Position numbers and translations under genes: made by a program | The notes under the pieces: model-generated | Seen by the model: only the letters and a program-made list of their open reading frames with translations | Told to the model about the DNA's origin: nothing | Database searches by the model: none | Assembly (NCBI GenBank): GCA_965178125.1 | Contig: OZ237773.1 | Span: forward strand, 496,001-560,000 | Source: Bilabrum cf. latius | Lineage: Eukaryota | Direction of reading: 5' to 3' | Length of the DNA: 64,000 nt | Shown: one piece after another, positions 663-63,741 of the stretch | How the letters are laid out: each line of letters opens with the position of its first letter | How positions within the stretch are numbered: position 1 is the stretch's first letter

Positions 663-2474
663 TCAGCTAACGACGCATCTCCGATTGGCCGTCGCTGCTC
701 CCTCCACCGGCTCAGCACTAGCGGCAGAGGCAGCAGAAGCAGTAGTAGCAGTAGCATCTGCGGCATTGCCCCCTGAAGAGTCGCTCCGCGGTGGGGCTTG
801 AGCAGGAGCAGGAGCTGCATCCTCACTGGCTGTGCCGGCCGAGACCTAGATGGCTCCGAGCACCAAGGCACCTGCAGAAAAGGTCACAGCCTGTGGGGCC
901 ATCATGGGCATGTAGTCATCAATCAGTTTCTTCAAAGATGCCATGAACCCGTCCTCTTCAGTCGCATCCATGGCCTGGGCAAGATTCGGCGGAAGCATCG
1001 CCACGAAGGCCAGCAAGCTCACCGCTTGCTTCCACAGCGGCCAGCACGCGAACGAATGCAGCTGCCCGATCGCGATTGCCAGCAGCAGTGCGTCCGCGAA
1101 GGGACGGAATGATACTACCCGCGACAGACCAGTCATTCTCTCGAACCAGTCCACGGCCCCGCCCTGCGCCCGCCTCACCGCCGCCTTGGCGCGCCGCAGC
1201 AGCCCCCACACAGCCCCGACAACTCCCCTCGTCTCGGTCTCCTAGCGCACCCCAGCGTCGTCATCTAAGCCATGGCGGCTGGGAGGAGTCATGATGGCCA
1301 CGACGAGTGCGAGATCGGCGGGCAGCGCCACGACGGGCTCGCCTGAAGAGAGCACACCGACAGCCCCGGCTGCGCCCGCCCGTACCTCGGGGTCGGCGCC
1401 CTCGCTGTCACTGTCGCTGCCCCTGCCGTCATCGTCGTCCTCCGCCCCTTGTCGTGGGGCGGGCGGCTGCCTAGAATCGGAAGCGGAGAGCTGGGCCGCA
1501 ATGGTCCTAGCCAGGGGGGCGACCTTGGCCAATATCTCCTCAATCGGGTCCGAAGCCCAGAACGTGCGGTGCGAAGGGTCCACCTCCATGCTTCGGGAGT
1601 GCCTGCAGGCAGCAACTAGGTCTCTGGCACTGCTCCCGTGGCGTTTGCTAGCCGCGATTGCGTCTCCCAGGGCCAGGTTCGCCCAAAGAAGCGACTTCCG
1701 CCATAACGGGATGGAGGTCAGGACATGGACCGCCAGATGGGCGTCGGCCACGTGGGCTGCGAATGAACCGTGCACGGCTGGCGTCCCATCCAATGCGGGC
1801 ACTGAGGCAATCATGTGGCACACGATCATTGCAGCGGCAGCCGCCACGATCCGGCCAGCCGCCATTTTGGTGCTGTTCCTGTCCCGACATGCGAGCGAGT
1901 CGAAAGTCACGGCCACTATTACGAGACCTACCAGGCGGTCCACAGAAGCGACGACAAAATCCCCGAGTGCAGTATAACACATACATGTAATGAAAGAGCT
2001 TGCTACCAGCGGGTTCAGAAAGCCAACCTTGAGCTTCTGAACCAGGAGTCCGGCCGGGAGGCCAAGGAGTTTGTCAAGGGCCGAGGGGACGACGAGCATC
2101 TGATTGGCCAGCTCCAGCGTGTCGAAGTGCGTGTAAAACTAGTAGCAGGCGCAAACACAGAGCACTGCCACAATTACGGGATTCGCATAAAGCCGCAGCA
2201 GCCACGCGCCATCCACTCCGTAGATTGATCCGGTCGAGTGCGTCGAAACAATGGCTACGTGCACAAGGAGCAAGACGGCGATCTTGCAAGTGCTGATTAG
2301 TCCGGTGTTTCTTGCTGCCTTGAACTGCTGCACCGCGCCTCGCCAAATGAGCCTAAAAATGCCAACATCGATCCAGAGGAGTCTCGGAAAGCCCCACACG
2401 ATCCAGGCGACCGTTGCAGGCAGCTGCAACGTTCCCGAGCTAATGACCCAAAGCGGTAACGCAAGCAATTCCAT
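663..2474 (-). CDS. Uncharacterised multi-pass membrane protein, 603 aa with TAG=Gln
   Basis: ORFs 2139-2474, 1242-2099 and 846-1211 share one frame, separated only by TAG (2139, 1242, 846). ATG 2474, TGA 663-665. Several hydrophobic segments. Confidence 0.7.
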
Positions 2475-2840
2475 TCTTTGATGTTAATTTTTGCTGTCGA
2501 AAGCAACGGGGGACCGTCGCCGGTACTAAAATTCCGATTTGGTCGCAATATGTGGTCGCAAGTGGTCTGGACGCCTACATCTCATCTACTACACAGGTTC
2601 ACACTTGCATTCCTTGTGCAGCACACCAACGCACCCATCATCCAGCCCGGCAAGTGCCAATCGCTGGTCCGAGTTGCCAAACACGCTGCGAACTGCCGGC
2701 GGAGCGCTCCCGTCGTCGCTTCCGTCCCCTCCTCGGGCAGCAGAACCACCCTGCTTGCCCTCTTCAGCCGGCATTCCCGGCCAACAGCCGAAGGCCGCAC
2801 AGGTCCCGCTCCTCGCCGGATACACCCATTCCCCTTCACG
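2387..2840. repeat. Second copy of the ~430-450 bp duplication, covering the first ~29 codons and upstream region of the 663-2474 gene
   Basis: Direct comparison with 215-639. Confidence 0.95.
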
Positions 2841-2890
2841 TGCAGCATGCCGGGTGCTCGAGCGACCTCCGGTACTGCTGCATCCAAACC

Positions 2891-3463: not shown

Positions 3464-5284
3464 TCACGCTGGTGCCGGCATGGGCCCGACAGCGGCGATG
3501 TACAGGTCCATCACGTTGGTGCCGGTGGGGCCGGTCCGCAGCAGGCCACCCTCCACGGAGGCCTGAACCAAGTGTGACGAGTGCGATGATTCTTCAGGCC
3601 CGGCTGCTTCGCCTACCTCTTCGGAGCCCGCTGGCCCCGATGCTGGCCCCGATGCTGGCCCTGCCCGCTTCAGCCAGTGGTAGCTGCGGTGAGAGGCAAG
3701 AGCGGCTGCCACGTCACAGTCCGGGTCACCACCTGTGGAATCGCCCTTCGTGTCCGGGTCACCATTCTCCAGGGCCAGCCTGACCGAGTCGCCGTCCACG
3801 ATACCCCCTGCTGCATCGGTGGGGCCATCAGTCCCGTCAGTGCCCCCTGCAAGGAACACGATGTCGGACAAGCCTACGATCTCTGCAGCGGCGGCTGCTG
3901 CCATCTCCTGCGCCCTGCCGCCCATGGGCCCCGAGTCTGCTTCTGGAGGGCCAGGTGCCGCTGCACTGGCTGCATCTGCTTCTGGAGGGCCAGGTGCCGC
4001 CGAGGAGGGCGAAGAAGAGTCGGAGGAGGAGGAGGAGGAGGAGGAGGAGGAGGAGGAGGGAGGCGATTTTCGAAAGGTTACTGTGGTCTCCCCTCCCCCC
4101 AGCAGCACGCAGGGTCCCCGCCCCAGAGACAGCCGCACACCCCCACCGCATGGCCCTGGCCCTGCACCCCCCTCGCCCTCCTCGCCCTCGGGTGTCTCTC
4201 TGCATGCCACAGCCATGCTGGCAATCGTGCGCGCCAGTTCCCCGGCCTCCCCCTGCAGCTTGGTGCCCAGCACGAGGGGGGCAAAACCAAGGCGACGGGC
4301 CTCAAAAGCGGCTGCCTACACAGCCAGTCGGTTGCTGCCCACCACCTCGAGCAAGTGCTCCATGCCTGTGCCCGTGGCCTTGCCCGCTTCGGTGCTGCCT
4401 GCTTTGCCCGGGCTGCGGGCTGCATGGTGACTCGCATCGCCCGATCCAGGTTGTTCCCTGGAGGCCTCCTGTTCCAGCCGGTCCATGACGGGAGCGGGCA
4501 GGCGATCCCGCATGCGGAACCGGCGAACGACTCCAAGGGCCCGCTGCGCGGCACCGGTCGACGAGTCAGGAGGCACGGTGGGACCCGACCCGATCACGGC
4601 TGGGTCATCCCCGATGACGTCACTGAGGACGAGGGTCCATGCCCGGGGACACCCAGCCTCGCGGAGGGCGGCGAGTAGTCCGCCCCCCTTGACGCGGCAC
4701 AGCTGGCTGCGGACAGCGTTCATGTCCTCTATGCTGGCCCCGGACTGGAGGAGCTGCTCGGAGGTGTGAGTGATGTCCTATAGAGAAGTACCCTCCACGG
4801 GTGCAAAGGCCAGCGAGGAGGCTCCCCCTGAAATGAGCACGAGCGCCAGGTCTGCTCCCTTGGCAGAGGCCGCCGCATCCAGAAGCGCCTCACCGGCCTT
4901 TATGCTGGATTCATCCGGTACGGGGTGGCTTGATTCAATTGTTTTGATGCCATACATTTTCAGAGTTTCAGCAGTCGTTGCATGGTGCGCCTCATCTAGT
5001 GTTCCTGCCTTGGTGACCAGCGCACCGCTGATGCGAACGCTCTCGGAGCACTTCTGCAGAATATCAACCGCTGCTGAGCACATGTCCAAGGAGGCTTTGC
5101 CCGCCCCAATCACAACGATTCGCCGCGCTCCGGTTCCGAGGTCAACAGAGCCACGCGTCGTCTCGTCGCCGCTGGCAGAAAAGAGTAGCAGGGTGCCCTC
5201 TCGGCGCAGCCCCCTTTGGACAGCATTCCCAGGCCTAGCAGCGTTAACCCCTGCCAAATACATCTAGAGTACTGCGCGGCGCAT
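3464..5284 (-). CDS. GLYCTK: Glycerate kinase (GLYCTK/MOFRL type)
   Basis: Motifs VIGAGKAS, SSHPVPDESS, LISGGASSL, VKGGGL, LSDVIGDDPAVIGSGPT, GGETTV, GTDGTDGPTDAAG and TGTNVMDL lie in one frame across TAGs at 5264, 4778 and 4316. Ends TGA 3464-3466. Start approximate. Confidence 0.9.
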
Positions 5285-5462
5285 GATGCGCGTCAAATCT
5301 AGCTTGTCCTGATATTTGCAGGCTTCATGCTGGCCGGTTGACGCTTCCGGGTACACCTGCGGATTAAATCAATGTTGCTAGTCATTCGACAATAAAGCAG
5401 GCAAGTGCCCGCGCCCTATGCGTCGTATTTGATTGTATATACTGCAAGCAGGGAGTGCTAGA

Positions 5463-6985
5463 ATGGACCCTGTTGTCACACAACTACGCGATATCTTTCC
5501 GACAGCGGATGATAGCGGGCTTGAGCTCCTCGCAAGGGCGTGCGACAATGATCTGGCGCAAGCTGCGCATCTTGGTCTATGTATCGAGCGGTTTCTTCTT
5601 GATCGCGATGCAGAAGACGACCTTGTGGGCGAAGAAGACTCGAATCGCGGTTCTGGTGCCAGATCCGCGTGTTTGCCATCGCCTGTTGACGGGGCAGCTT
5701 CCACCGAGCCCTCGGTTTCAACATCAAGGCAAAGCTCATTTCCATCACTCTCTGCCGGAATGCTCATCCCGCAGATGCGCAGTGCGATCGCAAAAGAGAC
5801 GGGCCGGGATGCTTCCTTTTTAACAGATGAGTATCTGTGGGGCCTCCTGCAGCAGAACGGGGAGCGGCTGGAGGGCGCGATGTCGCAGCACCGCCAACTT
5901 TAGGACGCCAAGGTCGCCGCAGCCCGCGAACAGGATGAGCTGGACATGGCCCTTGCCCTCTCGGGGCAGGCCGCGCAAGAGGAGGAGGACCAGCTGAAGG
6001 CCGCCCTGGCTGCCTCCATGGCCGTGCACGGAGATGAACAGCAGCAGCAGCAGCAGTACGCGAAGGAACAGGAGGGGGCGGGTCAGTCCAAGTCTGCATC
6101 ACTTGCACCGCATCACGGGGGCTCTCATACGGGGGGCAGCGATATGGCTCGGGGCGCTGCCCGCCTCCTCTCCCTCACCGAGGGGGCCGATGCAGAGGGG
6201 CTGGAGGCGCTGGCTCGGCTCTGGGAGGTGTCCGTTGAGCATGTGTCCGAGCTCGATGCAGAGGCAATCGCACTGAGGAGAAGCGCCTCCGCATCCTCCT
6301 AGGGGTCGGGAGGGGTGCTGGCGCCGCTGGTGCGGAGCGACTCGGTGGCGGGTCGGTTGCTGGCTGCCTGCCTGGACGCGGCTGAGGAGTTCCAGTCGTG
6401 GTGCGCTAAAATGGAGGCGATGCAGGCCGCTGAAATGGAGGGAAGAGTGGCCGGTGGCAGCAGCAGTGTGACGAGTGATGCGCGGCAATCGAGCGATCTA
6501 CCCGAGGCCCCCGGGGACGAAGGCGTGGCGCAGATGGGGCGCAGCATCAGCGCCGTGTCGCAGGGGCTGCAGGAAAGCCTCTGCCACCTTCCGGCTGATG
6601 TGGCGGAGGCGGTCGCTGTGACTGTGATGAGTGACATGGCCGATGATGCTGCCAGTGGGTCTTGGGGGCGAGAGGACAGTGTGGAGGAGGGTGTGAGGGC
6701 TGGGCTGCAGCTGCTGCGGGAGGCGGATCCGGAATCATTCGCAGCCGATGGCGGCTTGGATCCATTCTCATCTTCATCTTTTCAAAAAGACGGTTGGGCA
6801 ATAGCGGGCGGATCCGATGCAGTGGTGGGAAGCGGGAGCGGGAGCAAGTCGTCGGTATCGGTCTCGGCTCTTGCAGAGGCGGAATGGGGGGTCCCAGTCG
6901 AGACCGGAGATAGAGCTGGCGGTACCAGCGGTGATGCAGATGGAGAGGGTGCGGCGGGGCCAGGCCAGACGAGCGACGGGGGCAT

Positions 6986-7024
<39 letters not shown>

Positions 7025-8504
7025 GCAGGGACAGGGGGCGGCACTGCTTGGTGGTGCAGGGGCGGGGCTATGGCAGGGCCCCGGGGCTGGACGCAAGGGG
7101 AAGGGCAAGGGCAAGGGCAAGGGCAAGGGCAAGGGCAAGCGAGAGAGGAAACGGCCTAACCGCAAGGGCAAGGGCAAAGGCGGGCCAATGTCAACGTCGG
7201 TGTCAACGTCGGTGCAGTCGAGGGGTACCCTGGCACCGACCGATGCGCCCTCGTCGTTGTTCCCTGGGCCAGGCCGGGCCCCAGGGGCTGGCACAGCCGA
7301 AGTGGTCCCGATCGAGGCCCAGATGCGGGCCCTCCAGCAGGAAAAGAGGGCCAGGGAACAAGCGAGGGAGGCAGACCCGAGGCGCCGCACCGCCGCGCAG
7401 CTGGACGCTTCCGCCTCGCTGCCGTGGACCAAGCTGGCCAAGGGGGGCCGGAGGGGGCTGCTGCGGCACCTGCAGTCCACTGCGGTGAGCAGCGGGGCAG
7501 GGCGGGCGGGGTGGGCCCAGCAAGTGAGGCAGAGATCGGATCAGGCAGTGCACGATCCAGAGGCTGTGACGAGTGCTCGCATCGTGGCGGTGGGGGAGCG
7601 GCGCGGGGGCATGGACGACCTGGCCGGATTGGAGGCGCTTGAGGGCGGGGCGGTCGGTGGGGCAGGGATAGGGGTTGCAGGGGGGCGGGGGCGGGCTGAG
7701 AGCAGGCTGCTGCAGGCGGTGTGCGAGAGGTTGGGCGTGTATGGGTGTGCGGCTCTATTGGAGGCGGTGGGTGGGAACTGGCACCGGCTGCGACTAGAGC
7801 TGGAGGCCCCTGCGCGAGAGCTGGATAGGAGGAGGACACGGCTGGCATCGGCGGCATGCCGGCAAATGGCGGGGGGTGCTGCAGCGAGTGCCGCTGGGGG
7901 GTCCATGCTGGGGGCCAGGTCTCGGGAGGTGCTCGCGGCCGCAGAGGCCTAGCGGAGACATGCCGCGAGCGTGCTGGTGCTGCTGCGCTCTGCGGGTCCC
8001 CGCGCGGGGGACAGGCTTCTGTCCTAGCTTGATCGGGGGAGGGCGGGCGCGGGGATCGCGACGGGCGCGGGGGCGGACGGGGCTCTCCTCTCGGCTGCTG
8101 ACCTGCTGTCCGAGGAGCAGGAGAAGGAGAAGGAGAGGAGGGGGGAGGGCGGGAGCGGGAGTGGGCATGCGGGGGGTGGGACTGGGGGCAGGGGGGCTCG
8201 GCTGCTGGACCTGCATGGGGCGCGTGCAGCCGATGGTGTCGCGCTGCTTCGGAGTACCCTTGGGGCTCTGGGCCGGCGGGCTGCGGCCTTGGGCGTCTCT
8301 GCTGGAGCGGGGTCGGAAGCGGCTAGGGCACTGCACGTGGTGACGGGGCGGGGGTCCCACAGCAGGCACTTGGGGGTGAGTGCACTGCGGAGCGCGGTGC
8401 ATAGCGAGCTGCAGCGGCTGCGGGATGCGGGGGCTGTGAGGTTCTCGGCGGTGGGCCCGGGTGCATTCGACGTGAGAGTTCTAGGATCAGTATCCACTGG
8501 ATGA
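5463..8504 (+). CDS. CUE-like/UIM/Smr-domain protein (Cue2/N4BP2-like architecture), 1013 aa
   Basis: N-terminal VTQLRDIFP (CUE-like), UIM-like DELDMALALS and EEDQLKAALAAS, C-terminal Smr LDLHG...VVTGRGSHS. One frame through TAGs at 5901, 6300, 7950 and 8025; ends TGA. Confidence 0.8.
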
Positions 8505-8725: not shown

Positions 8726-11700
8726 ATGAGAACCAGCGTCATCTTGCTATTCGGTGCGCTACTCGCTCTGGCGGAACCAATCGCCAAGCCTGCAAGGCAT
8801 GGCACAGAGAGACAAGGACAACCCCTGGATGCGCTAAGAACGGATGTAAGCAACCTATGCACACAAGTAAGTTTACTCGGTCCAGCACGGAATAGCCTGG
8901 CTTCATCAGATGCCTTCGGTGATGATCCGATTGTCATTGCAATAGCTGTATAACCCTCGCCTCTTTGATGTAAGAAACTATACACATGCGTTTTTACAAC
9001 AAATTCTCAAATACTGGTGCAGTAGCGCGATGACGGTGTCGCTGTAGACACCTTGTCGGGAGTAAAATTATGCGATGGGGCTGCAGTCGGCGACGTCAAT
9101 GATTATGATATTCATGGCTTCGCAGCACGTGCGCCGTCCAGCGCAGGCACCATCGCTTACATGCCTACTGCGGATCGACGGTCGCTGTCGGGAGGAGGCC
9201 CCAACCCCTCTCCCTCACCGAGCCCAGCAGCCCCTGGAGTCGTGGTGGGTGCCGTGGATGTCATTGCCGGGGAGAATACAGCATGTCTCCTGGACCTTAC
9301 CACTGGAGACAACATGGGCAGCGCGGTGCTTGGACTTGGCGACCTTGACGGGGACACGGTCCCAGACGCGGCCGTGGGTGCCCCCCGGGATGACGCAGGG
9401 TAGGTAGATGCCGGCGTGGTGCATGTGCTGCTGCTGCACCAGAACGGGAGCTGCAGGGCGTCAACTACCATCGGTCCGACGCGCGGGACTTCTCCTGCTT
9501 TTGATGGAGGCAGTTCCGGTCAATTCGGGGCATCGCTGGGCCTGCTCAGGTAGCCTGCAGGTGAGATGCCAAGCAGTCCGCGGCTGTTGGTGGGGGAGCC
9601 GGGAAGCAGCCAGGGTGGCTCCACTTCGGGGATGCTTCGAGTGGTTCGGCTGCATTCCAACGGTACTGTCCGTCTGGTCACCCGCATTGGGAGGGGGCTG
9701 GACCCTGCATCCGGTGGGGTGGACATCCCTGCATCCGGCAGGTTTGGAACATCTGTAGTGGGTGACCTAGGGGACCTGGACCAGGACGGGCTGAATGACA
9801 TCGCGGTCGGGTCGATCACGGAGGCAGCGCCGCACGGCCTTGCTGGCGCGATTTACCTTGTCTTCATGCACGGAAATGACACGGTGAAGGGGGTGGCTCG
9901 TATCAGCCAGGCGCAGGGGGAGGGGCTGCACACAGTGTCTGCAAGCCTGGAACTGATCGGGACAGCCATGGCGGTGCTGCCCCCACCGGAGCCTGGCATG
10001 CTGCCCAGGCTGGGAGTATCTACTTCGACGTACCTGGCCGTTGCACAGCTGGACACACCCACGGCCGAGAGGACGAGCTGGGTCTCTCATTTGGACGAAC
10101 TGGCGGGCGGTGCGTAGGGGAAGAATCCAATCGGGGCCAGATGGGCGACGACGGATGGGTTCGGCAAGGTGTTGGCCCCAGTGGGCGACATGAACGGCGA
10201 CGGTCATTACGATCTTGCAGTGGGGGCACCGTTTGACTTTGCGCATGGCGCCAGTACGGGTGCTGTGTTCCTTGTGTATCTGCAATGCAATGCAACCAAC
10301 ACATGGACGGTGGGATTCAGCACGATCGATGCACAGGTCCCATCGATCGGTTCATTGATCGGAGCAGGCGACCAACTGGGTGCAGTGTCTCTTCTCGGCG
10401 ACATGAATGCCGACAGGAGAGTCGACCTCGTGGTGGGGGCTCGGCTGGAGGACTCAAAGGGGTCCAACGCAGGCGCTGCCCTGGTCCTCACCATGGGGGG
10501 CAGTGCAGCATCACCCACCCCCAGCCCCTCTGCCACCCCCAGTCCCAGTCCAACCCTAAGCCCTGCATCCGCGGGTCAGGTGGTCGGCGCTCGGCGCTTC
10601 GTGGGCAACGGCAGCAGCTCTTCGCAGCTGCACGTGGGCGCCGAGGATCGATTCGGAGGGTCTATAGTCGCACTGGGCGATGTGGATCTCGATGGAGTGC
10701 CTGACGTGGCGGTGGGGGCCTCCCGGGATGACGATGGGGCAGCAGATGCAGGCGCGGTGTGGGTGCTCCTTCTGCGGTAGGACGGCTCGTGCAAGGCTGC
10801 TTAGAAAATCAGCGCCGCGGAGGGCGGGCTGGATGCGATGGAAGGTCAGCTGGGAGGAGAGTTTGGAAAGGGGCTGGGCGTGCTGTGGCAGCCCGGTGGG
10901 GAGCATCCGACTATGCCCCGGCTGCTGGTGGGCGAGTTCGATAGTGACCAAGGTGGCTCTGGCACGGGGAGGCTGTGGGTGCTGAGGCTGTCTAGAAATG
11001 GTACTGTAGGATTCAGTACGGTCATCGGAAAGGGTACCAACTACACCCGTGGAGATGTGGACATCGCCGCAGCGGTGGCATTCGGGTCCTCCGTCACCGG
11101 ATCATTAGGCGATCTGAACGCAGACGGAATCAATGACATCGCAGTGGGGGCCGTAGGGGACGATGTGGCAACCAACTTCGGCGGTGCGATCTACCTTCTG
11201 TTGATGCGCGGAGATGACACAGTGAAGGAGATGGGTCGTGTCAGCCAAGCGCCTGGGGAAGGGCTAGACGCCATATCCTCAAGCTTGCTATTCATAGGGG
11301 AAACGGTGACTGTGCTGGCTCCCCCGGAACCGAGCATGCTGCCTCGTCTGGTAGCGGCGACAGGAATACAGAAGTTCATAGCGGTGATGCAGCTGCATGC
11401 ACCTGGGACTGATCCAGAGGCCAGCGGTTGGGTGTCTCATGTGGACCAGCTGTCTGGGCCATCAGGGGCGAATCCCATCGGGGCCTGGCAGGTGAGTGCG
11501 AATGGATTCGGCAGCGGGGCCGCGTCGGTGGGCGATATGGACGGCGATGGTGACCATGACCTTGCAATAGGCGCGCAACAGGACTATGGAGCAGGGCAGG
11601 CTACTGGTGCGGTCTATCTGCTGTACCTTCGGAGCAATGCAACCCGCACCTGGGTGGCTGGCTTCGATGTAGTGAACCCCTCGGCTGCTGCGATCGGGGC

Positions 11701-15619: not shown

Positions 15620-15664
<45 letters not shown>

Positions 15665-45287: not shown

Positions 45288-45366
45288 TGACTCTATGCCT
45301 CCGAAGGCCTACATGAATAGATTTCCTGGTGCAACATGATAATCCATCGATGGCCTGCAAACCGTT

Positions 45367-48455: not shown

Positions 48456-48654
48456 TCCAAATTGGGTCTGGTCTGATCGGATGCTGTGGGTTCTGCTCCT
48501 GGCCCAGAACACGTCTGGCTGCTGGGCATACGAACATTCGATGGAATCCGCAATAATGAACATTGAATGGTACAGATAGGAAGAATTAACCATCTATGGT
48601 ACGCCCTCCGGCCACTGCAAGCGCGGCGCACTCTCCTGCTCCTCTTCGCCCCGC

Positions 48655-49746
48655 TCAGCCGTCGATGTCCTCCTCCTCATCTGCCTCCATAGCAGCATCC
48701 CCTTCACCACCGCCAGACGCAGCCTCGGCCAGTCGCCGGCCCTCTGCCACCGCATGCGCCAGGTTCTCTGGGGGCACCATGGAGAAGGCCCCCGGCTTGC
48801 CGTCCTCGCCAAGCTTGATCCACGCCATCTCCACCTCCATGGGCTTCTCCTTCGAGTCGTCGTGCACCGTGTGCAGCATGCGCGATACGTCAGTGAGGGC
48901 CTCCTCCGATGATTTGCTCCACAACTTGGCCTTCTCGACCTCGGTCTTGCACGTGCGGGCCCCCTTCCCGATGGCGATCCCGAAGAAGCGGTGGTACGTG
49001 CCATCCACCTCCACCATGTACAGCTCCCAGCCAGACGCGCTGCCGTCGGCGCCCTCCTCGCCAGCAGCAGCCTTCTCGGCATCGTATCCTGCTATCAATA
49101 CCTGGGCACCGAACGGCCTGTATCCCCCGCTTGTGGTGTAGGCGTACACCACGTCTGCGAGCTGCTCGGCTAGCATCTTGGGCGGGACTGGCTCGCCCCA
49201 GTTCTTTCGGTGGCTTGAGGCAATCCGCTGGGCGTATAGAACAATCGATCTAGCATCTCCTGCCAATCCCGTGACAACCAGTCCGACGTGCTTGTCGATC
49301 GCAAAGCATCGCCTGTCGCTGCCCTTGACAAGCAGGCGCGATACCCGAAGTTTCTCCACACCCAGCACAACCCCATCTGTGCATCTCACGCCAACGGCAG
49401 TCCTGCAGACTTGAAAATGGTACAAACCAGACGTGCTCATGCTAATAATTACGAAAGGAAATCGTGAATTTTGGATGATGCTCGCTTTGGTTAGATGCTG
49501 GTACATCGAGCTTCCTACAAGAATCTCACCCCGCTGCGTCCACTGCTTTCTGTGCGTATTCCAGCTAAATCACCTTTCCCTCGGGTGAAATCACATTGGT
49601 CGAGTAATCATACTGCGGTGGAAGGCAATCAAGCAAAGTGCTGGCTAGGATTTCAAGTGAGACTTGAGCACAGCTCATTCTTCATGGCACAAAGAAGCGG
49701 GTTGAGAAACCTGTACTATTCTTACTCCTGCGGCTGTACTGGCCAT
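48655..49746 (-). CDS. PSMA3: 20S proteasome subunit alpha7; exons 49746-49726, 49612-49530, 49402-48655
   Basis: MASTAAG|YDYSTNVISPEGKVI(TAG 49565)LEYAQKAV|GTAVGVRCTDGVVLGVEKL, YRPFG, AIGKG, HDDSKEKPMEVEMAW; ends TGA. Confidence 0.92.
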
Positions 49747-49976
49747 ATTATTGGGAGAGTTATAGTACGACCGTGACGGTTCGACCGCGGCGCTTGGGGG
49801 GGCGTGAGCGATCTTGTTCCGCAAATTGCGCGGCGACTGTCCAGCCAGGTTTTGCGTAAAGTACACGGTACATTTATATTGCCTGGCCGATGCTCGGATG
49901 CAAACATTCGCCATTTTTGGCGAACTGGCCGAGTTCTTGATCCTATTTCGCTTGAAATTCTGTAGCCATCAACAAT

Positions 49977-52900: not shown

Positions 52901-54224
52901 CTGCTAGACGACAGCGTTGATTTCGTGCGTCAGGGCGCCTACATCGCAGGTGCCATGGTGCTGCAGCAGGAGAGCGAGGCGCGCACCCCGCAGGTGAAGG
53001 CATTCCGCGCTAAGATCGCCAAGGTATCTGCAGATGCAAGGTTGCACCCCACCATGGCGCGCGTGGGTGCTATCCTTGCTTCAGGTATCATCGACGCAGG
53101 AGGCAGGAACGCCTGTGTTGGACTTCGGTAAGTCGCTGTGGCCTGACATGTGGCTCTGCCGCAGTTCGCCTGTCCATAGCTTGCGATTGCATGGCTGGGT
53201 TCATCCCTTGGTGCTGCCTTCCGCTCTCAAGATCCCCATCGCTGCTTTTGCTTCTTCCCTCGCTCGCAGTTCTAGGGCGGGTTTCCAGCGCATGCCGGCC
53301 GTGCTGGGCATGGCGCTGTTCGTGCAGTACTGGTACTGGCTGCCGCTGACCCACTGCCTCTCTCTGGCCGTGCACCCCACGGCCCTCGTGGGGCTGCACA
53401 AGTCCCTCAAGATCCCCAAGTCCTTCCAGGCAGAGTGCCTCTGCAAGCCTTCGCTCTTCGCATACCCCGAGCCCCTGCACGTGAAGAAGGAGGCCGAGGA
53501 CAAAAAGGTGGAGGTCGTGGAGCTCTCTACCTCGGCCAAGGCCAGGGACAGGGCCAGGCGGAGGGCGCAGCGGAAGAACAGGGACGGGGCCGGCTCGGAG
53601 ATATCCACCCCCTCGGGCAAGGGCAGGGCCCCCTCGGCGCTGACCCCGCTGTCGGACTCGGGGCGGGGTGCCTCGGGGCAGTCGCAGGGGGACGAGGGGG
53701 GTGCAGCGCAGGGTGGTGCTTCGCCTATGAAAGGGGGTGACGAGGACGAGGGAACAGGCGCTGCCGCTGGTGCGGGGGCCGGGGACGAGGGCGAGGACGG
53801 GAAGGGGTCATCAAAGGGCAAGCAGGGAGGCAAGGACAAGAGCGGGAAGGAGGAGGCCCGGTCCTTTGCGCTGACCAACCCCAGTCGTGTGACGTTGCCG
53901 CAGCAGCGCTTCGTGCGTTTCTCGCAGAAGGGCAGGTGGGTGCCGGTGCGCAAGGACGCTTCTCTCAACCTGGGCGCCGTAATGCTGATGGACCAGGGCA
54001 AGGCGGCGGCCGGGACGGGTGCTGCGGCTGCAAGCGACGGCTCCGCCAAGATGGAGGACGGGGCCGATGCGACCGCAGCTGCTTCTGGGAGCGGGAAGGT
54101 GGAGGAGGAGGAGGACGACGATCTCGAGGAGGTGCACGTCCCGCGGCCGGGCGAGGAGGAGGAGAAGGACTACGAGGCACCAGCGGAGTTCGTGTGGGTG
54201 GTTGGTGACTACGTTGACTTCTAA
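49977..54224 (+). CDS. PSMD1: 26S proteasome subunit Rpn2; exons 49977-50036, 50179-51711, 52253-53127, 53270-54224
   Basis: AAGIIALLDE, GTTSDRFLREN..W..KASNWSKF, LLHVAVSDVSDQVRRAAV, ESFNPHVRYG, QYWYWLPL. TAGs at 50440 and 51178; ends TAA. Confidence 0.96.
51778..52176 (+). repeat. Intronic tandem repeat, 140-bp unit x ~2.9, candidate box C/D snoRNA array
   Basis: Period 140 (51781, 51921, 52061). Each unit has GTGACGA...CTGA with short complementary flanks. The repeat is certain; the snoRNA call is tentative. Confidence 0.9.
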
Positions 54225-54381: not shown

Positions 54382-55655
54382 ATGCTCCCACGTAGAGTTG
54401 TAAGGCGCGGTCTATCAAGATGTGCTGCGTTGTCGAGGGGCTTTCATGAGAACGCTAGCGGCACAGGGCACGCGAAAAAGATTTGCGTGTTTGGCAGTGG
54501 ATCTTTTGGCACTGCGCTTGGCTCGGTCCTGGCTAGACAGGGAAATCACGTAGTATTGCTTACTAGGCGAGAAGAAGTTAGCGATCATATTAAGAAGCAC
54601 CACCGGAATCCCTCATACCTCTCACGTGAGATCTAACCCTAACCCTTACACCTGTAAACCGGCGCGGACGGTGGATCCGACACTCAGCAACTATACACAT
54701 GCTCTCGATATTAATACGTCGTCGAGTCCATTCTAGTCTAATTAACTTGCATTCTGCCCGTGCATTCCCTGCGTGGTTCCAACTCGCAGAGTACCCGCTC
54801 CCCTACAATTTGACAGCGACCACAGATCCAGAAAAGGCGATCAGCAAAGCATCAGCAATCGTGCATTGCGTCCCGGTACAGTCAAGCTTTGAATACATGC
54901 AGGATTTGAAGACCATTCTGCCGGCAGACGTGCCGATCATCAACACCAGCAAGGGGCTTCACACAAACAAGCTCCAGCTTATGACAGAATTAATCCCAGA
55001 GGCACTGGGAAGAGATCAGCCATTAGTCTGTGCGTCCGGACCCTCATTTGCGCGCGAGCTGATGGAAGGCTGGCCAACTGGCCTTGTTTTCGCGTCCACG
55101 GACGAGCAGCTGGCCCGCGAGTCGGCCTCCCTGTTCAGCTCGCAGGTCGTACGCACGTGGACCACCACGGACGTCGTCGGTGTGCAGCTTGGAGGTGCGC
55201 TAAAGAACGTGTACGCGATTGCCTCCGGCGTGCTGGAGGGCCTGGGCCTCGGCCTCAACACCACGACGCTGCTGGTGACACGGGCTGTGGCGGAGACGAA
55301 TCGTCTGGCGACAGCCATGGGGTCTACCGAGCCCACGCTGGTGGGACTTGCGGGCATCGGAGATCTTATGCTGACTGCCTTCGGGTCTCTCTCCCGCAAC
55401 AGGACGGTGGGAGTGCGTCTGGGCCGCGGGGAGACCCTAGCGGAGATTATGGAGACGACCAATGAAGCGGCGGAGGGAGTGGCCACCACCCCGGCGGCGC
55501 TCGCCATCGCCCGGTCCCATGGGATCGATGTGCCCATCATCGAGGCCGTGGATGCATTGCTGAAAGAGGAGACCACCCCAGTTGATGCGCTGCTGAGTCT
55601 CATGGGCAACGCCGAGGACCCGCAGCAAGTCAACCCCGAGAAGATCCTCTCATGA
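54382..55655 (+). CDS. NAD(P)-dependent glycerol-3-phosphate dehydrogenase (GpsA-like); exons 54382-54625 and 54790-55655
   Basis: GSGSFGTAL, TSKG, SGPSFA, GGALKNVYAI, GIGDLMLT, SRNRTVG; Arg-rich presequence-like N-terminus. No TAG; ends TGA. Confidence 0.93.
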
Positions 55656-55762: not shown

Positions 55763-58700
55763 TCAGTCGCCGCGCCCCTAGTCACCCTCCCTCTCCCTCT
55801 CCCTCCCCGCCTCCTACTGCGCATCCACCGTGCCCCCACGAGCCCTCCGCCGATCCCCCTGATCCCTTGCTGCCCTCCCCCTCCCGCCGCCGCGCTCCTC
55901 CGCGACAGCCTGCACCTCCTGCTCGGCTCTCTGGATGCGTCTCCTCCCAGCCCGAGCCAGCGCCCGCAGGCCCATCAGCACTAGCAGCCCCGCTGCAATC
56001 CACGCGATTGCGTGCTGCTCCGCCCGGCGCACCTCCCGCGGCCAATCCAGTCCGCGCCCCACTGCCTCGCTCCTCCCAGCCCCCGCCTCAGGGCCTGCCA
56101 GGCGGTCCGTGACCCACTCCGCAGCCCCCGCCACACCCTCCACCACCGCCGCCAGCCCCCTGGCCCCTGCCCTCCACCCCGAGCGAAGGTCCCTGTGCAA
56201 GCCCCCAGGCGGCCTCCTCGCAGCCTGCCGCAAAGAGGCACCCACAGAGGCAGCCAGGCGGGCCAAGGACCCCGCGTCCTTTGCCTATAGCTCAAGAGGG
56301 CGCCTCCTCCTCGCTGCCCTCCTCCGACGGTCCCCACGACTGCCCCCAGACTCCCCATCCGTGCCACCCGCCCCGCCACCCACAGCACTCGATTTGCCAC
56401 TCCCGCCTTCTTCTCCACCCATTCCACTGCCTCCATTCCCAGCCGCACCAGCCCGTCCAGCCTCCTTCGCGCGAGTCTCCGCGGCCCTTGTGGCCAGCTG
56501 CCGGGCAGCGGGCGAGTCGGCAATTCCAGACGCCCGAGCCAGCCACCTCAACCCGCCCTCTACCCCTCCCCAGGCCCAGGCTGTAAGTGAGGACCGATCA
56601 GCCACACTGTGCTTGCCGACTGCCGCCTTGGCGCCATCCAGGTCGATCTCGTGCACCCACGCGCGGAACTTCAGCCATGTGGCAGCTGCGCGCGCGGGCA
56701 GTGCGGCTGGGTGCGAGGTCATGAGGCCCCCGAATGCGCGGTCTAGAGGAGTCACTGCCTTCCCGCGGCCCCTGCCAGAGAGTGCGGCGGCGGCGTGGTG
56801 TGCCCCCGAGATGGCCTCTGCTGCAGCCGCGCTCTCGTCGTAGAGCCGCTTGGCCAGGTGCCAGTCGGGCCTGGGCTGCTCTTTGCCCAGCCCGTCCTGC
56901 AAGCCCAGCTCGTGCAGCCGCCCCAGTTCCCAGAGAGCCCTTGGCCCCCTCCGAGCCGCTGCCGCCCTCCACCGGCGGGGTGACTCTGCTCCCGCCACGT
57001 GCAAACCAGCCACGCCGGCCTCCGAGAAAGCGGCTGCCAGCACCTCGAGGCTCTGGTTCGGAAGACCGTCGGCACCCGATGATGTTTGTCCTGACCCAGA
57101 CGACCCAGATCCCGCCCCGGCAGCCTGCGAGAGAGCCAGCAGTGCCTTGGACTCGGCGCTCTCCGCAGCGATGACCAGCACCTCGTGAAGAGGAAAGGCA
57201 TGCCCGCCCTCGCCGCCCCGCGCCTCGTGTATCGCAAACTCGGCCGCCTCAGCGCCCGCCACTCCCCACAGCAGCAGCAGGTGCAGGTCGTCCAGAGGGT
57301 CGCCCTCCTGGCCCACGCCCGCGCCTGCCTCCCGCACTGTCGCGGCGTCCATGCCCACGAGAGCAGCAAGATGCACCGCCAGTGCTTGCCCAGTCCCCTG
57401 CCGCTGATGCCCTGCCACATTCAGCAGCTCACTTGATTCATACAAAGCCCCTACCACGCGGTCAGAGGACGGGGGCGGCAGCGCCGGGACTTCGCAGTGA
57501 AGCCGCCCGCACACGAGTCGCACGGGCATGGGTTCTGGGCTGCTGGCCCCTTCTCTCAGTCCCAGAGCTGTGCCAACGTGCGAGCCAGGGAGCCCCGGCA
57601 CGCGGGCTGCCGCCAGGTCAAGCCCGAGGCCCCGCCAGACCATTGCCAGCCAGTGCCCCCCCTTCGCTAGTGACCGCAGCAAGGGGGTGCTAGGGGGCCC
57701 GGATGCATCTGACACCAGCATCTGCCCGGCCTCATCGCTCATCCGGCGGATCAGCTTGCCCACCTGCCCGGCCAGCAAGCCCGTGTTCCACACCGCTGCA
57801 TCGTACTCGGCGCCCTCGCCCCATGGGCCGCCCAGCACCACGTCACCCTCGGCCCGCTGGCCCTCCCCGCCCCCACTTGAGTCCGCCTCTAGCGCGATTG
57901 CGCCGTGCGCGGCTATGCCCATGCTGCCCTGCGAGCCGGCAGCCAGGGTGCCCCGTGACCACGCCAGCAGAGCCAGCACGGGCTGCCCAGCGGCCAACCG
58001 CCGGACGCCCTCCCTCGCTGCCAGCGCAAAGTCACCTCGTCTGGCCACTGCAGCCAGTAGCGTGGTCGACCCGACGCACGTGGGCACTGGTGCATTGGCT
58101 GACGGCTCCCCGATGCCCCTGAGTCGCAGCTGTGCCAGTGCATGCAGTGCAGATAGACTGCCCCTGGAGGCAGCAGAGGCCCATGCCTCCTTGGCTGCCT
58201 GCAGGTGCAGCCTGCCCCTGTGGTGGTCGGGCACTAGCACCAACCGCTTCCTCTCCTGCAACAGCTCGGCCAGCTCCAGGTCCATCTCTTCATCCACAGC
58301 AACAGAATCATCGTGCTCCTCTCCCACCTCTCTGCTCTCCCGCATCGCTTGCAAGGCTGGAATCTACTCCATGTGGACCAGCACCTCCAGCAGGCGCTCT
58401 GTCCACGGCCCCTTCACGACATCGCCCAACGTGATCGGCGCATCAGCCCCCTTGCGCTTCGAGCCACCGGTGGATTTTCCTGTTGCAGAGACAGGGGCTG
58501 CCTGCCGCCCAACGCTCCCGCTGGCCAGCATGTGGCCCAGCATCGTGAGTGCCTCAGAGCTGCCCTGCGAAGCGGCGAATCGCAGCAGTTCCATACCACG
58601 GTCCTTGTCTGGCCTAAGGAGCCAAGACCCTTCCACAACTCCATCGATGCCACGCACCCAGATGCCGTGCATCCTGGCCTAGCCGAGCGCGGATGCTGCT

Positions 58701-61279
58701 CCAGCCTCGCCTCGGACTGCAGCCGCAGCCAGCATCTGCAGTCCCGATGCAGCCTCTATCAGGCGATCTTCTCTGGCCCGCTCCTGCCCGACCACACCCT
58801 CCCCAGGGCCTGGCGTCACATCGCCTGCGTTCACTTGCCAGTAGTCCCGGCGGAACTCTGCCATGCCATCCCGGCCCACCCATCCACCGAGCCATTCGCT
58901 GTACGCCCGAACGCCACCATGCTCACAAGCTGTATCTCCTCTGCAATCACTGGTCTCGCTTTCATCTCCATCGTCAGCCGTCTCCGACCAAGCCCAGGCA
59001 TGCCGAGAAGCAGCATCTCCCCACTGCTGCACATCCGAAGCCCTGCCCACAGTGATCCAGCTCCCGGGTCGGCTCAACAAAACAGCCTCCGATTGCCCTG
59101 CACCCTCTGGATGATGACCGGTGCCCGTCTCTGCGCCCCAATTCCCCCTCGCGCCTGATTGCACGCCGGCAAGCGCCAGCCGGCCAGCTAGCCCGAGGGC
59201 GCCTGCAAACTTGCGTCGCAGCTGCCTGGCCATATTGACGTCCTCTGACTCGTCCTGTCCCTGGGAGCCCCCTGCATTCTTGCGCTTCCTCTGACTGCCG
59301 CCGTCGTTCTGGCCCTGCCCCTCCTCTTCAGCATCCCCACCAGCATGGGCCAGCTCGTCAAAGTGCACCTCTCCGCCCGCGCCCTCCAGCGACTCGATCA
59401 CATCGCTCGCAGAATGGTGCTCCTCCAACGCCCCGCCCCCGTCTGCGTCCATCATACCAATCGTTGCCTGCAGGGCAGCCTCGTAGGCGCCCACCAGCGC
59501 CGTCCATCCCCCCTGCGGCCCCTGCGCCACGCCATGCATGAGCCTCCTGCCCGCCAGCTCCAGCGATACAGAGGGGTCGCTCAGCATGGAGTGCTCCAGG
59601 AACTCCATCTGTGTGTTCTCTTGGTCCAGCAGTCCCTGGGCCTGGCCCACGAGACCCATCCAGTGGCCCGTCTCCAGCTGGTCAGACTGCTGCGGAGAGG
59701 CCAGCCGGAACCTGGAGGCATACCCCACTGCCCGCATTGGCATGTCCAAAGGCGCACTGGCCCGCATGGCCCGCAGCACTGCGCTTGAGGCGCGCTCCAG
59801 GTGAGCCGAGGCAGCCGCGCACCTGGCGATCCGGGGGGCCTGGCTCCACGGTGAGGCGGGGAGGAGGGTGGCGGCAGAGTTAGGTGAAGAGCTCGGCTGC
59901 TCGGCGGCAGGGGAACTCACCATGTCTGCTTGAGCCAGGCCCAGGGCCAGCGTGGCTGCGACGGAGAAGGACGAGACTGAATCAACCTGGTGTCCTGCTT
60001 TATTTGGTTCCGAGTCCTTTGAGCCGGCTGCCCCCTTTTGGTCATGGCCGTGGTCATACGCAAGACCGGGCAAGGGGGCCAAGCCCCGGCCCGCCGCCGC
60101 AAAGGACAGCAAGCTGGCGGCCTTGCCCGGGTTCCTCCGCACGCCTAGTATGCCCTATGAGTACATGCCCGCCACAGTGGCCTGAGCATGCGGGTCGCCC
60201 AGAGCCGCCGCCCTCCGCCAGTGCAGAGCCGCGAGAGGTGCCGAGGGGAGCAGAGCCACGGGGCAGGAGGCACTGCCCGGGGGGGAGGACCTGCCTGACG
60301 GATCGGGGGCCCGGGGGAGCAGTGCCTCCAGGTGCGACCATCGGCCGGGGCTGTTTGCATACTCTTGCACCAGCGGTGCCTCCGCCCCCGGGCTACTATC
60401 CCCTTGAATGCTCTGTGGGTCAGTGCCCTGCATGGATCGGGAGGGCAGCAGCATCCAATGCTTGCCACTGCCAGTGGACGAGGACGCGGCGCCGTCTGAT
60501 GGATCATGCCGTGGCTTGATATTCTTCGTAAGCTGTACAGAGGTGAGCGAAATGCCTCCCGCTTGCCACAGCTTGCCTCCCAGTTGGTAGGGCTCGCACG
60601 CCTCGCCCAGCCCCACTCCGTGCTCGTACGCCTTGGCGAGGATCGCATGGCCGGCGGCTGCGATCATGGACACGCTCGGATCGTGCGTCTACGATGCGCC
60701 TCCGCAGTCACCTACGCTCTCGCAGTGAGCCTCAAAGTCCGCTTCGGTGGCCAGAACCACTGCCGCTGTGTATGCGAGCGCCGCTCGTACGGATGGAGAC
60801 CGAGACACCGACGTGACGACCAATGCGCGTTGGTCGCCCAGGAGACTATGTAGGTCATTGATGCTAGAAAGTGCGCCAGTGGATGCGTTTTGCGCAATCT
60901 TTGACAGCACCCGCCTTGCTACATCGGCTGCAACAGCAGGCTGAGGCCCCGGAACCCGACGTTCCATCCAGCTGCCCGGGCCTAATACTCCGCTCGAATC
61001 CTCTCCAAAGGCATAGCCAGATGCGGCTGTCAATGATCTTTCTGAGGCAGCTAGCAGGGCAGCCGCTGCTGGCACCCGAATCACTGTTGGATTGCTTCGA
61101 CACGGGTGGTGCAACGTGGCCATGGCACGAGATTCACCGGTACCTCCACCAAGGCCCTCACCTGGCAAACACCCCATCACAAGAGCGTCTCGCAACTCAT
61201 AATTATGATTTGGCTGAGCCGCGGTCGAAAAGAAACCGCATCCCCCTAGGATCGCTAGCACGACGTACCAGGCCCTCAT
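55763..61279 (-). CDS. SEL1-repeat membrane protein, SEL1L/Hrd3-like, 1838 aa
   Basis: Signal peptide, SEL1 repeats (WRRAAALGDPHAQ; FAASQGSSEALTMLG), DWHLAKRLYD motif, C-terminal TM. One frame through TAGs at 60689, 60155, 58679, 58364, 56285, 55814 and 55778; ends TGA. Confidence 0.78.
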
Positions 61280-61530
61280 TGCTTCGGGATAGCCCGGAAG
61301 ACTAGGTTCGTTCGAATTCGAATACGAGCTACTGGTAATCCAGCGCTATAATTGGAGTTTAAAGAGTACCTGCTGGCAGTTCCAACGCGGCGAAAATGCC
61401 TTGGCTGAGCCTGATGACGCAGGGACCGGCAAAATCTGGGGGCTGGCCGCCTTTGAGCGGCTGTGACGATTAGGATCCGCAGGCATCCAGACCAGACGGA
61501 CTGACGGACTGATCAGATCGACTGAGCAAT

Positions 61531-63741
61531 TCACGGACACTTGTCGTGGCCCCCATTGCCTCCCCCTCCCAGGTCCATGGCCACCGTCACAGTGGAGGCC
61601 ACAGCACTCGCCACTCCAAACAGAGCGATGCCGCAGTGCACCACCCAGCTCGCCGTGGAGGGCTCCCCCGATGCGATCGCCTCCACCGCCTCTCTCACAT
61701 CCACTGCTCCAGGCCTACCACCCGCCTTGCCTTGTCCTTCCTCCGGCAGCTGCTCCAACACGTGCCTGGCCATGCGTGCCGCCCTGCCCCTTGCCATGAG
61801 CCACACCAGCGTCGAGGCAGTGTATCCGATCGTGCAGTTCACGCCCCCGCCCACCAACGCCAGCAAGTCTCCGAAGTCAGGAATTCCGAAGGCCAGTGCA
61901 TATGCCACCACCACGAGACAGACACGCACCGCCACACGAGCTCCATGCTCATCCCAGCCCCCTCGCCTAGCCAGCCAGCGGGTGCACGGCCAGCAGAGGC
62001 ACGAAGCCAGGCACGCCCTCGCACCCAAGGCCTCATCCTCCTGCCTTCTGGCAGCGTGCCCCACTTCACTTCCCACCGCCTCGCTATTCGTTCCCCCCGG
62101 AGCACTTGCCCCGGCACTCTTTTCCCCCTCTGCCCCCGTCTCTCTATGTCTACCCCAGCCCTGTCTCTCCCCTGCCAGCACACCCCGGGCCTCTGCCCTG
62201 GCTTGCCGAGCCTCCCGCATCCCACCCACGACGAATCGCTCCACCACCTGCCGCCCCGCCGCCAGCACCATGGGGGCAGTGAGCAGCAGGTCCAGGCACA
62301 GGAGGGCTCGCACGACCTGCAGGACCCAGCCGCTGCTGAGTGCGTCCAGCACGTTGGCAGGCGTGTTCAGCCCAAACAGCATGGCTGCAGCCAAGCCAAA
62401 TGCTACGTTGCTTGCTGTGACGATCCCAAATCCGATGCCTAGGGATCGAGCTGCTGCCGGTGCGCTGCCTTGCTCGGCTAGGATGGGCAGAGTCACGATG
62501 TGAATGGCGAACAGGAACGCGATCTGTCCTATGGCCCGGGGCAGGCCGCCGGGCTTCAGGTGCGGTAGCGCACCCCACGACGCCATCGAGATGCCTTCGA
62601 CAGTCGACCCATACGCCCCCGCCACCACAACCGCGACAGCCCCCCCGAGCACCGCCACATTGCCCAGCGTTGATGTCCAAGCCAACCAGTGGAAAGACTG
62701 AATCTGCGCCAGCCCCAGCACCAGAGGTGCGGTAGCCAGGGCGGCCATCTGCACCGACAGCGGTCGGCTGGCCCCGCTGTCTCTCCCCGCGCATGCGATA
62801 TCTGGCAGGGTGGAGGCAATGAAGTCGATGTAGACAGCGCACACACCGATCGAGGTCAGCAGCAGCCCGAAGTAGAGCCCAACCTCCGCGAAATTAGGGC
62901 ACTGTGAACCTGCTGAGTCAATGTGCTAGCCAGCAGCACTCATATCGGACCCACCCATGTCCCCAACCCTCTCCTGTCCGTGACCATCCTGTCCATGCCC
63001 ATGCCCCTGGATGCCCTCCAGGACAGCCAGTGTCACTCGCACATGGACCGGCTGCACCAGCACGTCCTCGCAGCCCAGAGGGGACCCGTCCCCACCACTG
63101 CCAGCAGATGGAGCAGGCCGACTGGCTTGGTAGGACGGCGCACCGGGCGACCCATCCATCATCGGGGCCTGGCCCCGCGCCCTTGCAGTGGCAGAGGGCC
63201 CGGCCTGCGGTGTGGGTGGGACGTACCGGGGCGAGGGCGGGGGCGCCTGCTCCCCTTTCATAGCGCCCTAAACCACCGTGCTCTCGTCATGATTCTGTTC
63301 CCTTTCAGGCTGGTCTCGCCCTGGGCGTTCGCTCCCATCATGCCCTGCGGCTTCCAAGGCGCCGAGCTGCACAGGCTGTCTCGGCGGTGGCTGCAAGTCA
63401 CGAGCCCGCCACGAGCAAGCTATCCTGCCTAGCTCTGGAAGCGTTAGCCTAGTCATGCTTGTTCGGGGTAAAGCTGGGTTGCCAGTCGAATGTACGGTCC
63501 AGTAAAAGGCCAGGTCGCACAAGGTTGCCTCTGCGTCGGCCAATAGCCACATGGTGTATGCAGAAAGGACGCCAAGACAAAGTGTTGCTGCCATACCCCC
63601 GGCCAACCCGGCAATCAAAAAAGCTGCTGGCAGCGAAAACGACCCTGCGCCCACCGCACATTTTATAATATTTAAGATCGCAGCCGTTGTGCCAAGCTAG
63701 GCTGGGCTTGTAGCTGCGGCACTGGTACTGGCTTCAGCCAT
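61531..63741 (-). CDS. Amino acid transporter, AAAP (SLC36/38-like) family, 736 aa
   Basis: LNIIKCAVGAGSFSLPAAF, FLFAIHIVTLPI, IPDFGDLLALVGG; many TM helices. TAGs at 63697, 63268 and 62926; ends TGA. Confidence 0.88.

Follow-up and report, generated by a model that had tools for sequence, protein, structure and literature searches.

A 64-kb stretch of the genome assembly of Bilabrum cf. latius (contig OZ237773.1, positions 496,001 to 560,000; hereafter the window, in whose own numbering positions are given) carries genes whose reading frames are crossed again and again by TAG codons. The question raised by this locus is whether UAG is a stop codon in this organism at all and, if it is not, which amino acid it specifies and whether UAA and UGA have gone the same way. 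A preliminary description, made from the letters alone, had answered that UAG is read as glutamine (Gln) and that UAA and UGA still terminate. That answer is borne out by TAG codons that are kept in transcript contigs, by exchange between TAG and CAG or CAA in a related organism, by homologue columns that favour Gln and by conserved C-termini; it is because of the first three of these that we take UAG to be a sense codon. We see little room for doubt that the window is nuclear DNA from a eukaryote that is GC-rich and has spliceosomal introns, in all likelihood a bigyran stramenopile near Cafeteria, in which UAG specifies Gln, and in which UGA (the usual stop) and UAA end translation.

The GC-content of the window is 62% as a whole and ranges from 54 to 68% when taken in 4-kb segments. 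Read with the standard code, the window has stop-to-stop frames of at most 918, 732 and 692 amino acids; with TAG treated as sense the longest measure 3007, 2037, 1415, 1203, 1054 and 1023. The same treatment of TAA gives frames of 918, 843 and 732 amino acids, which is essentially no gain over the standard code, and that of TGA gives a maximum of 1095. TGA is the most frequent stop trinucleotide on the two strands together (1518 occurrences, with 853 of TAG and 396 of TAA), and because this commonest of the three yields no frame longer than 1095 amino acids when read as sense, the lengthening is specific to TAG. GC-content at third codon positions (GC3), taken alone, gave no separation of coding from antisense frames in the window.

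Counting from the first ATG of each of 21 open reading frame (ORF) or spliced gene models, we found 79 in-frame TAG codons in 17,222 codons, with at least one in 19 of the 21 models; the first exon of a gene for a Rad6-like ubiquitin-conjugating enzyme (E2) holds one more, which brings the genes with an in-frame TAG to about 20 of 22. The figure of about 75 TAGs in 21 of 23 genes, given in the preliminary description, agrees with this recount within the margin set by untranslated regions (UTRs) and introns. Such sequence probably accounts for a few of the 79, two preceding the signal peptide of an ERp29-like protein and two falling in a SNARE exon, and two in the first exon of a DUF5107 gene are perhaps also outside the coding sequence. 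The six positions that had been singled out as telling (24723, 33888, 49565, 37373, 36864 and 46744) each mark one end of a TAG codon, its first or its last base, on the correct strand. TAG makes up about 12% of Gln-type codons in the 21 models (79 TAG, 486 CAG and 114 CAA), compared with about 8% in conserved housekeeping segments.

When TAG is translated as X, Pfam domains run straight through the X positions of homogentisate 1,2-dioxygenase (HGD), DUF4147/MOFRL, RPN2_N, CCDC47 and Aa_trans, and the Ion_trans_2, FG-GAP (nine repeats), GRAM/VASt and ERp29 domains cross X positions as well. Further Pfam matches in the window are to CCT/TCP-1, DUF5107 with TPR, cNMP-binding, SGL, glycerol-3-phosphate dehydrogenase (GPDH), SNARE/syntaxin-6 and UQ_con. 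Some coding stretches are free of TAG: the main exon of CCT8 (34179-35466, 428 codons), the gene for a second E2 (43796-44898) and the GPDH exon (54630-55655).

Public sequencing runs were searched with positions 33001-43000 as query: 20 rows from 13 studies contain it in whole or in part, and in seven of them half or more of its words are present; none of the rows is recorded as RNA. Contigs from four runs belonging to three studies, X6 and X7 (study P3), X8 (P4) and X5 (P2), were then aligned over 33701-53700. The genes concerned, with the segments that are spliced out, are as follows.

33603 to 35466, plus strand: CCT8 (T-complex theta; Pfam Cpn60_TCP1); exons 33603-33897, 34002-34077 and 34179-35466, with introns 33898-34001 and 34078-34178 taken from spliced contigs; in-frame TAG at 33633-33635 and 33888-33890; stop TGA at 35464-35466; spliced frame open.
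35844 to 37600, minus strand: HGD (Pfam HgmA_N/C, PDB search, 120 homologues); intron 37242-37357; TAG at 37373-37375, 37173-37175, 36864-36866 and 36426-36428; stop TGA at 35844-35846.
39568 to 43589, minus strand: DUF5107 and TPR protein (Pfam); intron 43099-43247; TAG at 40423-40425; true start possibly after two further TAGs, 43335 and 43398; stop TAA at 39568-39570.
43796 to 44898, minus strand: second ubiquitin-conjugating E2; introns 44151-44242 and 44343-44486, from spliced contigs; no TAG; stop TGA.
45367 to 47313, minus strand: two-pore K+ channel-like protein (Pfam Ion_trans_2, contig cover); TAG at 47137, 46744 and 46636; ORF end TGA.
47290 to 48455, plus strand: ERp29-like protein (Pfam ERp29_N and ERp29, spliced contigs); intron 47381-47766; TAG at 48303-48305; stop TGA.
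48655 to 49681, minus strand: proteasome alpha subunit (spliced contigs of X7 and X8); intron 49402-49528; TAG at 49565-49567; stop TGA.
49902 to 54224, plus strand: 26S proteasome subunit RPN2 (Pfam RPN2_N, PDB search); four exons separated by introns 50034-50175, 51712-52252 and 53127-53268; TAG at 50440 and 51178; stop TAA at 54222-54224; spliced frame of 1147 codons.

Contigs of X5 are collinear with the genome through the introns, as in a DNA-like run. Those of X6, X7 and X8 omit the short segments listed above as introns, all bounded by GT..AG on the gene strand, and because these introns are removed we take the contigs to be spliced transcripts. With the introns gone, CCT8, HGD, DUF5107, the second E2, ERp29, proteasome alpha and RPN2 each form one open frame. 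The earlier assertion that no internal TAA or TGA is found is circular for plain ORFs and holds for these seven transcript-supported models, which run from Met to TGA or TAA. The earlier description of a GC-rich, intron-containing genome fits the 62% GC of the window and the GT..AG introns spliced out in contigs.

All contig pieces listed match the window with no differing letter and no insertion or deletion. The aligned region holds 17 in-frame TAG sites, of which 14 are covered by the listed pieces or by the sides of their joints, in no case with another letter; the remaining three, outside the listed pieces, are at 47263 and 47269 (probably 5' UTR) and at 51178. All four TAGs of HGD are present in spliced contigs of X6, X7 and X8. 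The preliminary description had asked that UAG be confirmed in mRNA, and the 14 sites stand unchanged in spliced contigs of three runs from two studies. Since spliced contigs keep TAG as it is, these data place UAG in the mRNA, and editing to CAG is unsupported.

Between two related species TAG trades places with CAG and CAA. When metagenome contigs were scanned for the HGD exon, 38 loci came up; of the 13 whose frame lengths were tested, only two, L001 and L002, gained long frames with TAG as sense. These are two contigs of one organism, identical where they overlap, with a GC-content of 53-55% and an HGD that is 89% identical to that of the window. The gene order E2, DUF5107, HGD on L002 is that of the window, and the L002 DUF5107 frame of 1406 codons, which is open only with TAG as sense, holds seven TAGs; the DUF5107 proteins of the window and the relative share 72% identity over 1196 amino acids. 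Window TAGs correspond to CAG, CAG, CAA, CAA and GTT in the relative, each of the four HGD sites being CAG or CAA in L002, and TAGs of the relative correspond to CAG (three times), AGC, TCG, GAG, AAA and one gap in the window. Thus 7 of 12 aligned cross-species sites fall on Gln codons, and no other residue occurs more than twice. Two-way exchange of TAG with CAG and CAA is what synonymous change inside one codon family looks like. Because the relative shares both the TAG-sense frames and this exchange, the comparison of the two sequences shows the trait to belong to a clade and not to a single strain.

Three further observations concern HGD and its surroundings. The spacer between DUF5107 and HGD measures 1.8 kb in the window (37600-39400), where it has 39-45% GC, is without a long frame and has nearly no contig cover from X6-X8; in L002 it measures about 470 bp (5898-6365). 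A second organism, represented by L010 (72% GC) and L011 (71% GC) from the same two metagenomes as L002 and L001, respectively, has an HGD that is 57-61% identical to that of the window and adjoins a homologue of the same E2. Its contigs show no gain in frame length with TAG as sense, and it may be a standard-code neighbour with a GC-content like that of Cafeteria. Finally, the 438-amino-acid protein P0001, an HGD relative with 79% identity, starts at a Met that matches residue 42 of the main HGD exon of the window, so that the conserved N-terminal part is missing; the truncation would be accounted for if that organism had an in-frame TAG upstream.

The identity of the amino acid can be read from homologue columns. 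At the four TAG sites of HGD, aligned to 120 homologues, Q accounts for 98 of 113 residues (37373), 46 of 114, 110 of 120 (36864) and 33 of 120; in the last of these columns P (75) is commoner than Q. Summed over seven columns, four from HGD and three from a glycerate-kinase-like gene, the log-odds are +21.2 bits for Q, -11.0 for K and -11.3 for E, so in the aligned sequences every other residue trails Gln by more than 30 bits. Two sources were left out of this sum: the search with the RPN2 exon was flooded by low-complexity words and returned two proteins, and the internal repeats of the FG-GAP protein gave 34 aligned cells, off-register ones included, with mixed content (A 7, G 5, P 5, Q 4, T 4 and others). 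In PDB alignments the TAG at 49565 of proteasome alpha falls on the Q of a conserved motif in two of two, and that at 33888 of CCT8 on Q in all five of those listed, which are of near-identical mammalian CCT8. The earlier statement that TAGs sit at conserved Gln positions therefore stands for HGD 37373 and 36864, for proteasome alpha and for CCT8 33888; it is not confirmed for two further sites, in Rad6 and in the K+ pore, that are taken up below. The proteasome motif had been quoted inexactly as DGR.F[Q]VEYA; the window reads GKVIxLEYA.

Where, then, do genes end? The stop is TGA in five of the seven transcript-supported genes and TAA in two (DUF5107 and RPN2). In the relative, TAA ends DUF5107 and E2 at the same C-terminal residues as in the window genes, and P0001 shows conservation of the C-terminal HGD tail that follows the Pfam domain, as far as the TGA. 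These ends bear directly on the possibility that UAG has a dual role, being Gln inside genes and a stop at some ends, depending on context as in Condylostoma and karyorelict ciliates. For 14 of the 21 models, those with neither transcript nor C-terminal homology support, a plain ORF could truly end at a late TAG instead of at the next TGA, and the frame of 2037 codons indeed has two TAGs among its last 25 codons. Against this, every one of the seven transcript-supported genes and both genes checked in the relative have a C-terminus in common with homologues, formed by TGA or TAA, and the HGD tail runs on to its TGA. A dual UAG is the best of the alternatives and still an unlikely one.

Less probable again, to the point of being very unlikely, is that UAA and UAG have both become Gln (UAR = Gln, NCBI table 6), UAA simply being too rare in a GC-rich 64 kb for this to show. 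The concern is a real one, given that even if UAA were sense only 0.47 in-frame TAA would be expected in the GC3-rich conserved segments of the window, which on its own is uninformative about UAA. It is because of this small expectation that the evidence against UAA as Gln comes from the relative and from four gene ends, those of DUF5107 and RPN2 in the window and of DUF5107 and E2 in the relative, which are formed by TAA. The less GC-rich relative has 8 TAG, no TAA, no TGA, 36 CAG and 28 CAA in 1863 homology-supported codons; if TAA were Gln and TAA:TAG followed CAA:CAG, 6.2 TAA would be expected, and the probability of observing none is 0.002. Nor is any frame lengthened by reading TAA as sense. 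The sample is small, but on these sequences UAA remains a terminator and is no sense codon. UGA has likewise kept its function as a stop, with no in-frame TGA in 2909 homology-supported codons of the window and in the 1863 of the relative.

That UAG specifies some other residue, such as the Glu or Lys of certain ciliates, the Leu of a rhizarian or the Ser of Scotinosphaera, finds some encouragement in individual sites that pair with E, K, S or A; it is hardly credible in the face of log-odds that are positive for Q and negative for K and E, and of the 7 in 12 cross-species sites at CAG or CAA, where no other residue exceeds two. Equally improbable is that there is no code change and that the TAGs are assembly errors, pseudogene lesions, sites of U-to-C editing or of programmed readthrough: nothing was found in favour of this, contigs of four runs from three studies, spliced ones included, carry no differing letter, some 80 sites lie in essential genes, and the relative has TAGs of its own at other Gln positions. 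Pyrrolysine and selenocysteine-like recoding were considered and rejected along with readthrough, editing and pseudogenes, on account of the many sites, the ordinary housekeeping genes, the alignment with Gln and the TAGs kept in spliced contigs.

Several observations nonetheless count against UAG as Gln in a stramenopile nucleus. Runs X6-X8 are not recorded as RNA, and it is from the splicing in their contigs that we infer transcripts; contigs also drop rare variants, and partial U-to-C editing may go unseen in them. At five of the 12 cross-species TAG sites the other species has a codon for V, S (twice), E or K. Several TAG sites, moreover, lie in variable columns and are uninformative. None of the three in the glycerate-kinase-like gene shows a dominant residue among 148 homologues. 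In PDB alignments the first CCT8 site, 33633, pairs with A, the RPN2 sites pair with E/H and K, and the two sites at which the claim of conserved Gln is unconfirmed give other residues: Rad6 24723 is K in five of the five alignments listed, all of yeast Rad6/Ubc2 and weak (E about 0.8), and K+ channel 46744 is T, A or L, and not Q, in five weak alignments. The Rad6 matches came from a shorter stretch, the whole first exon having returned only low-complexity proteins in the PDB search. Neither the 64-kb window nor the L001, L002, L010 and L011 contigs contain a tRNA gene, and the eRF1 gene is not within the window. The taxonomy, lastly, comes from two trees of one gene each, in which the position nearest Cafeteria has weak support (86 and 80).

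Those trees, built from the top matches to CCT8 and HGD and with no rRNA, place the host as follows. The best named match of CCT8 is Cafeteria roenbergensis (60%), followed by oomycetes (54%) and green plants (about 53%); in the tree, the window groups with the Cafeteria clade and two unnamed proteins at an SH-aLRT of 86 (not starred), and this group belongs to a larger clade, most of it unnamed, that stands apart from oomycetes and Ectocarpus. Among named matches to HGD, oomycetes and Rhizochromulina (63%), Cafeteria (67%, over part of the protein) and Hondaea (55%) come out best; the window, L002 and P0001 form a clade (100) that is sister to Cafeteria plus P0020 (80), in a group with Hondaea (90). 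The best reading of these sequences is a bigyran stramenopile near the bicosoecids.

By analogy with other codes in which UAG alone is reassigned, decoding would need a tRNA-Gln with anticodon CUA, which would pair with UAG and not with UAA, and a glutaminyl-tRNA synthetase (GlnRS) that accepts this anticodon. The N-terminal domain of eRF1 would have lost or weakened its recognition of G at the third position and kept UAA and UGA. With a code of this type one would also expect to find no tRNA with anticodon UUA, and changes in the eRF1 motifs that recognise stops (GTS, NIKS and the YxCxxxF region). Such a mechanism for UAG-only codes, a tRNA with anticodon CUA that is unable to read UAA together with changes in eRF1, is set out in PMC5304391, which names T32G (in the GTS motif) in Iotanema and A at position 69 in the rhizarian exLh, and adds that the anticodon serves GlnRS as an identity element.

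Nuclear codes that split UAG from UAA are described in PMC11687900 for a rhizarian (Leu), Iotanema (Gln), Scotinosphaera (Ser) and Protocruzia tuzeti with two phyllopharyngean lineages (Gln), as well as for one ciliate in which UAA is Lys and UAG is Glu; the cases given there are in line with the preliminary remark on how few eukaryotes are known to have UAG-only Gln. Iotanema spirale (Fornicata) comes closest, since UAG alone is reassigned, and to Gln, with UAA and UGA as stops and with the same predicted needs, a tRNA-Gln(CUA) and an altered eRF1 (PMC5304391). It differs in being an anaerobic metamonad known from a transcriptome (PMC5304391), whereas the window is GC-rich, stramenopile-like genomic DNA with introns and with UGA as the main stop. 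In exLh (UAG = Leu) and Scotinosphaera (UAG = Ser), UAG is again reassigned alone and UAA remains a stop, but the amino acid is another (PMC5304391, PMC11687900). Many ciliates, hexamitin diplomonads, Ulvophyceae, Streblomastix and Amoeboaphelidium use UAR = Gln (PMC11687900). These table 6 codes share UAG = Gln with the window but read UAA as Gln too; in the window TAA terminates and is absent in frame. Protocruzia tuzeti and the two phyllopharyngean lineages, like the window, have UAG-only Gln, UAA and UAG being uncoupled (PMC11687900). They differ in being ciliates, a group known for code changes, whereas the window has 62% GC and best matches that are not ciliate-like. The genomes of Protocruzia and of the phyllopharyngean ciliates are AT-rich. 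The code itself is thus of a known kind, that of NCBI table 15, and it is the lineage that appears new for it. In full-text literature searches, whose coverage is incomplete, no report of a nuclear code change in stramenopiles was found; labyrinthulean mitochondria were the sole stramenopile item.

The remaining frames of the window, in order of position, are given below.

663 to 2483, minus strand: membrane protein frame; 3 TAGs.
3464 to 5368, minus strand: glycerate-kinase-like protein (Pfam DUF4147/MOFRL); 3 in-frame TAGs.
5433 to 8504, plus strand: unnamed frame; 4 TAGs.
8969 to 17992, plus strand: FG-GAP repeat membrane protein of 3007 codons (Pfam FG-GAP, 9 repeats, E 4.7e-74); 17-18 TAGs.
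18202 to 19794, minus strand: CCDC47 (Pfam); 1 TAG.
20709 to 23873, plus strand: GRAM/VASt protein (Pfam); 2 TAGs.
24039 to 25079, minus strand: Rad6/Ubc2-like E2 in several exons (Pfam UQ_con on the last exons); TAG at 24723-24725.
26275 to 28002, minus strand: cNMP-binding protein (Pfam); 7 TAGs.
27868 to 29313, plus strand: SGL protein (Pfam); 1 TAG.
29488 to 33735, minus strand: low-complexity frame; 10 TAGs.
55763 to 61876, minus strand: frame of 2037 codons, its upstream end overlapping the Aa_trans gene; 8-9 TAGs; no Pfam family matched.
61531 to 63747, minus strand: amino-acid transporter (Pfam Aa_trans); 3 in-frame TAGs.

Long coding microsatellites lie inside the large frames at 13176-13875, 22900-23100, 7000-7200 and 32500-32600, encoding poly-Ser/Pro, (GS)n, (GQ)n and (GK)n; the Ser/Pro tract yields TAG-rich antisense frames, with 11 TAGs each, which are not genes. 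One contig of X6 is unbroken from the second exon of ERp29 (plus strand) into the last exon of proteasome alpha (minus strand), 47767-49403; the 3' ends of these convergent genes are about 200 bp apart, and their transcripts may overlap. No Rfam family was matched in the 64-kb window.

A practical consequence is already visible in public data. Two entries of a public protein collection, P0123 and P0124, are 100%-identical fragments of the glycerate-kinase-like gene, covering query residues 36-196 and 216-350, and they start after or end exactly at TAG codons. Because they are bounded in this way, we conclude that standard-code gene callers split the genes of this organism; annotations and metagenome bins of the lineage are likely to be wrong.

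As to the evolutionary meaning, we lean, with distinctly less assurance than for the code itself, towards an independent origin of UAG = Gln in a clade of at least two bigyran stramenopile species related to bicosoecids. This would be the first nuclear code change in Stramenopiles, and one whose setting is GC-rich genomes (62% and 53-55% GC) with UGA as the main stop, whether it arose in them or has only persisted there. If true, this would depart from the usual pattern, in which UAR reassignment goes with AT-rich genomes. The case touches the open question of how a single eRF1 can ignore UAG and yet read UAA, and a further independent instance in a different supergroup would be a natural replicate for comparing changes in eRF1 and in tRNA-Gln and its synthetase. 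It offers a GC-rich genome, introns, a sister species with the trait and a standard-code neighbour (Cafeteria), and with genomic DNA and transcript data already public, the changes in tRNA and eRF1 behind the distinction between UAG and UAA are open to direct test.

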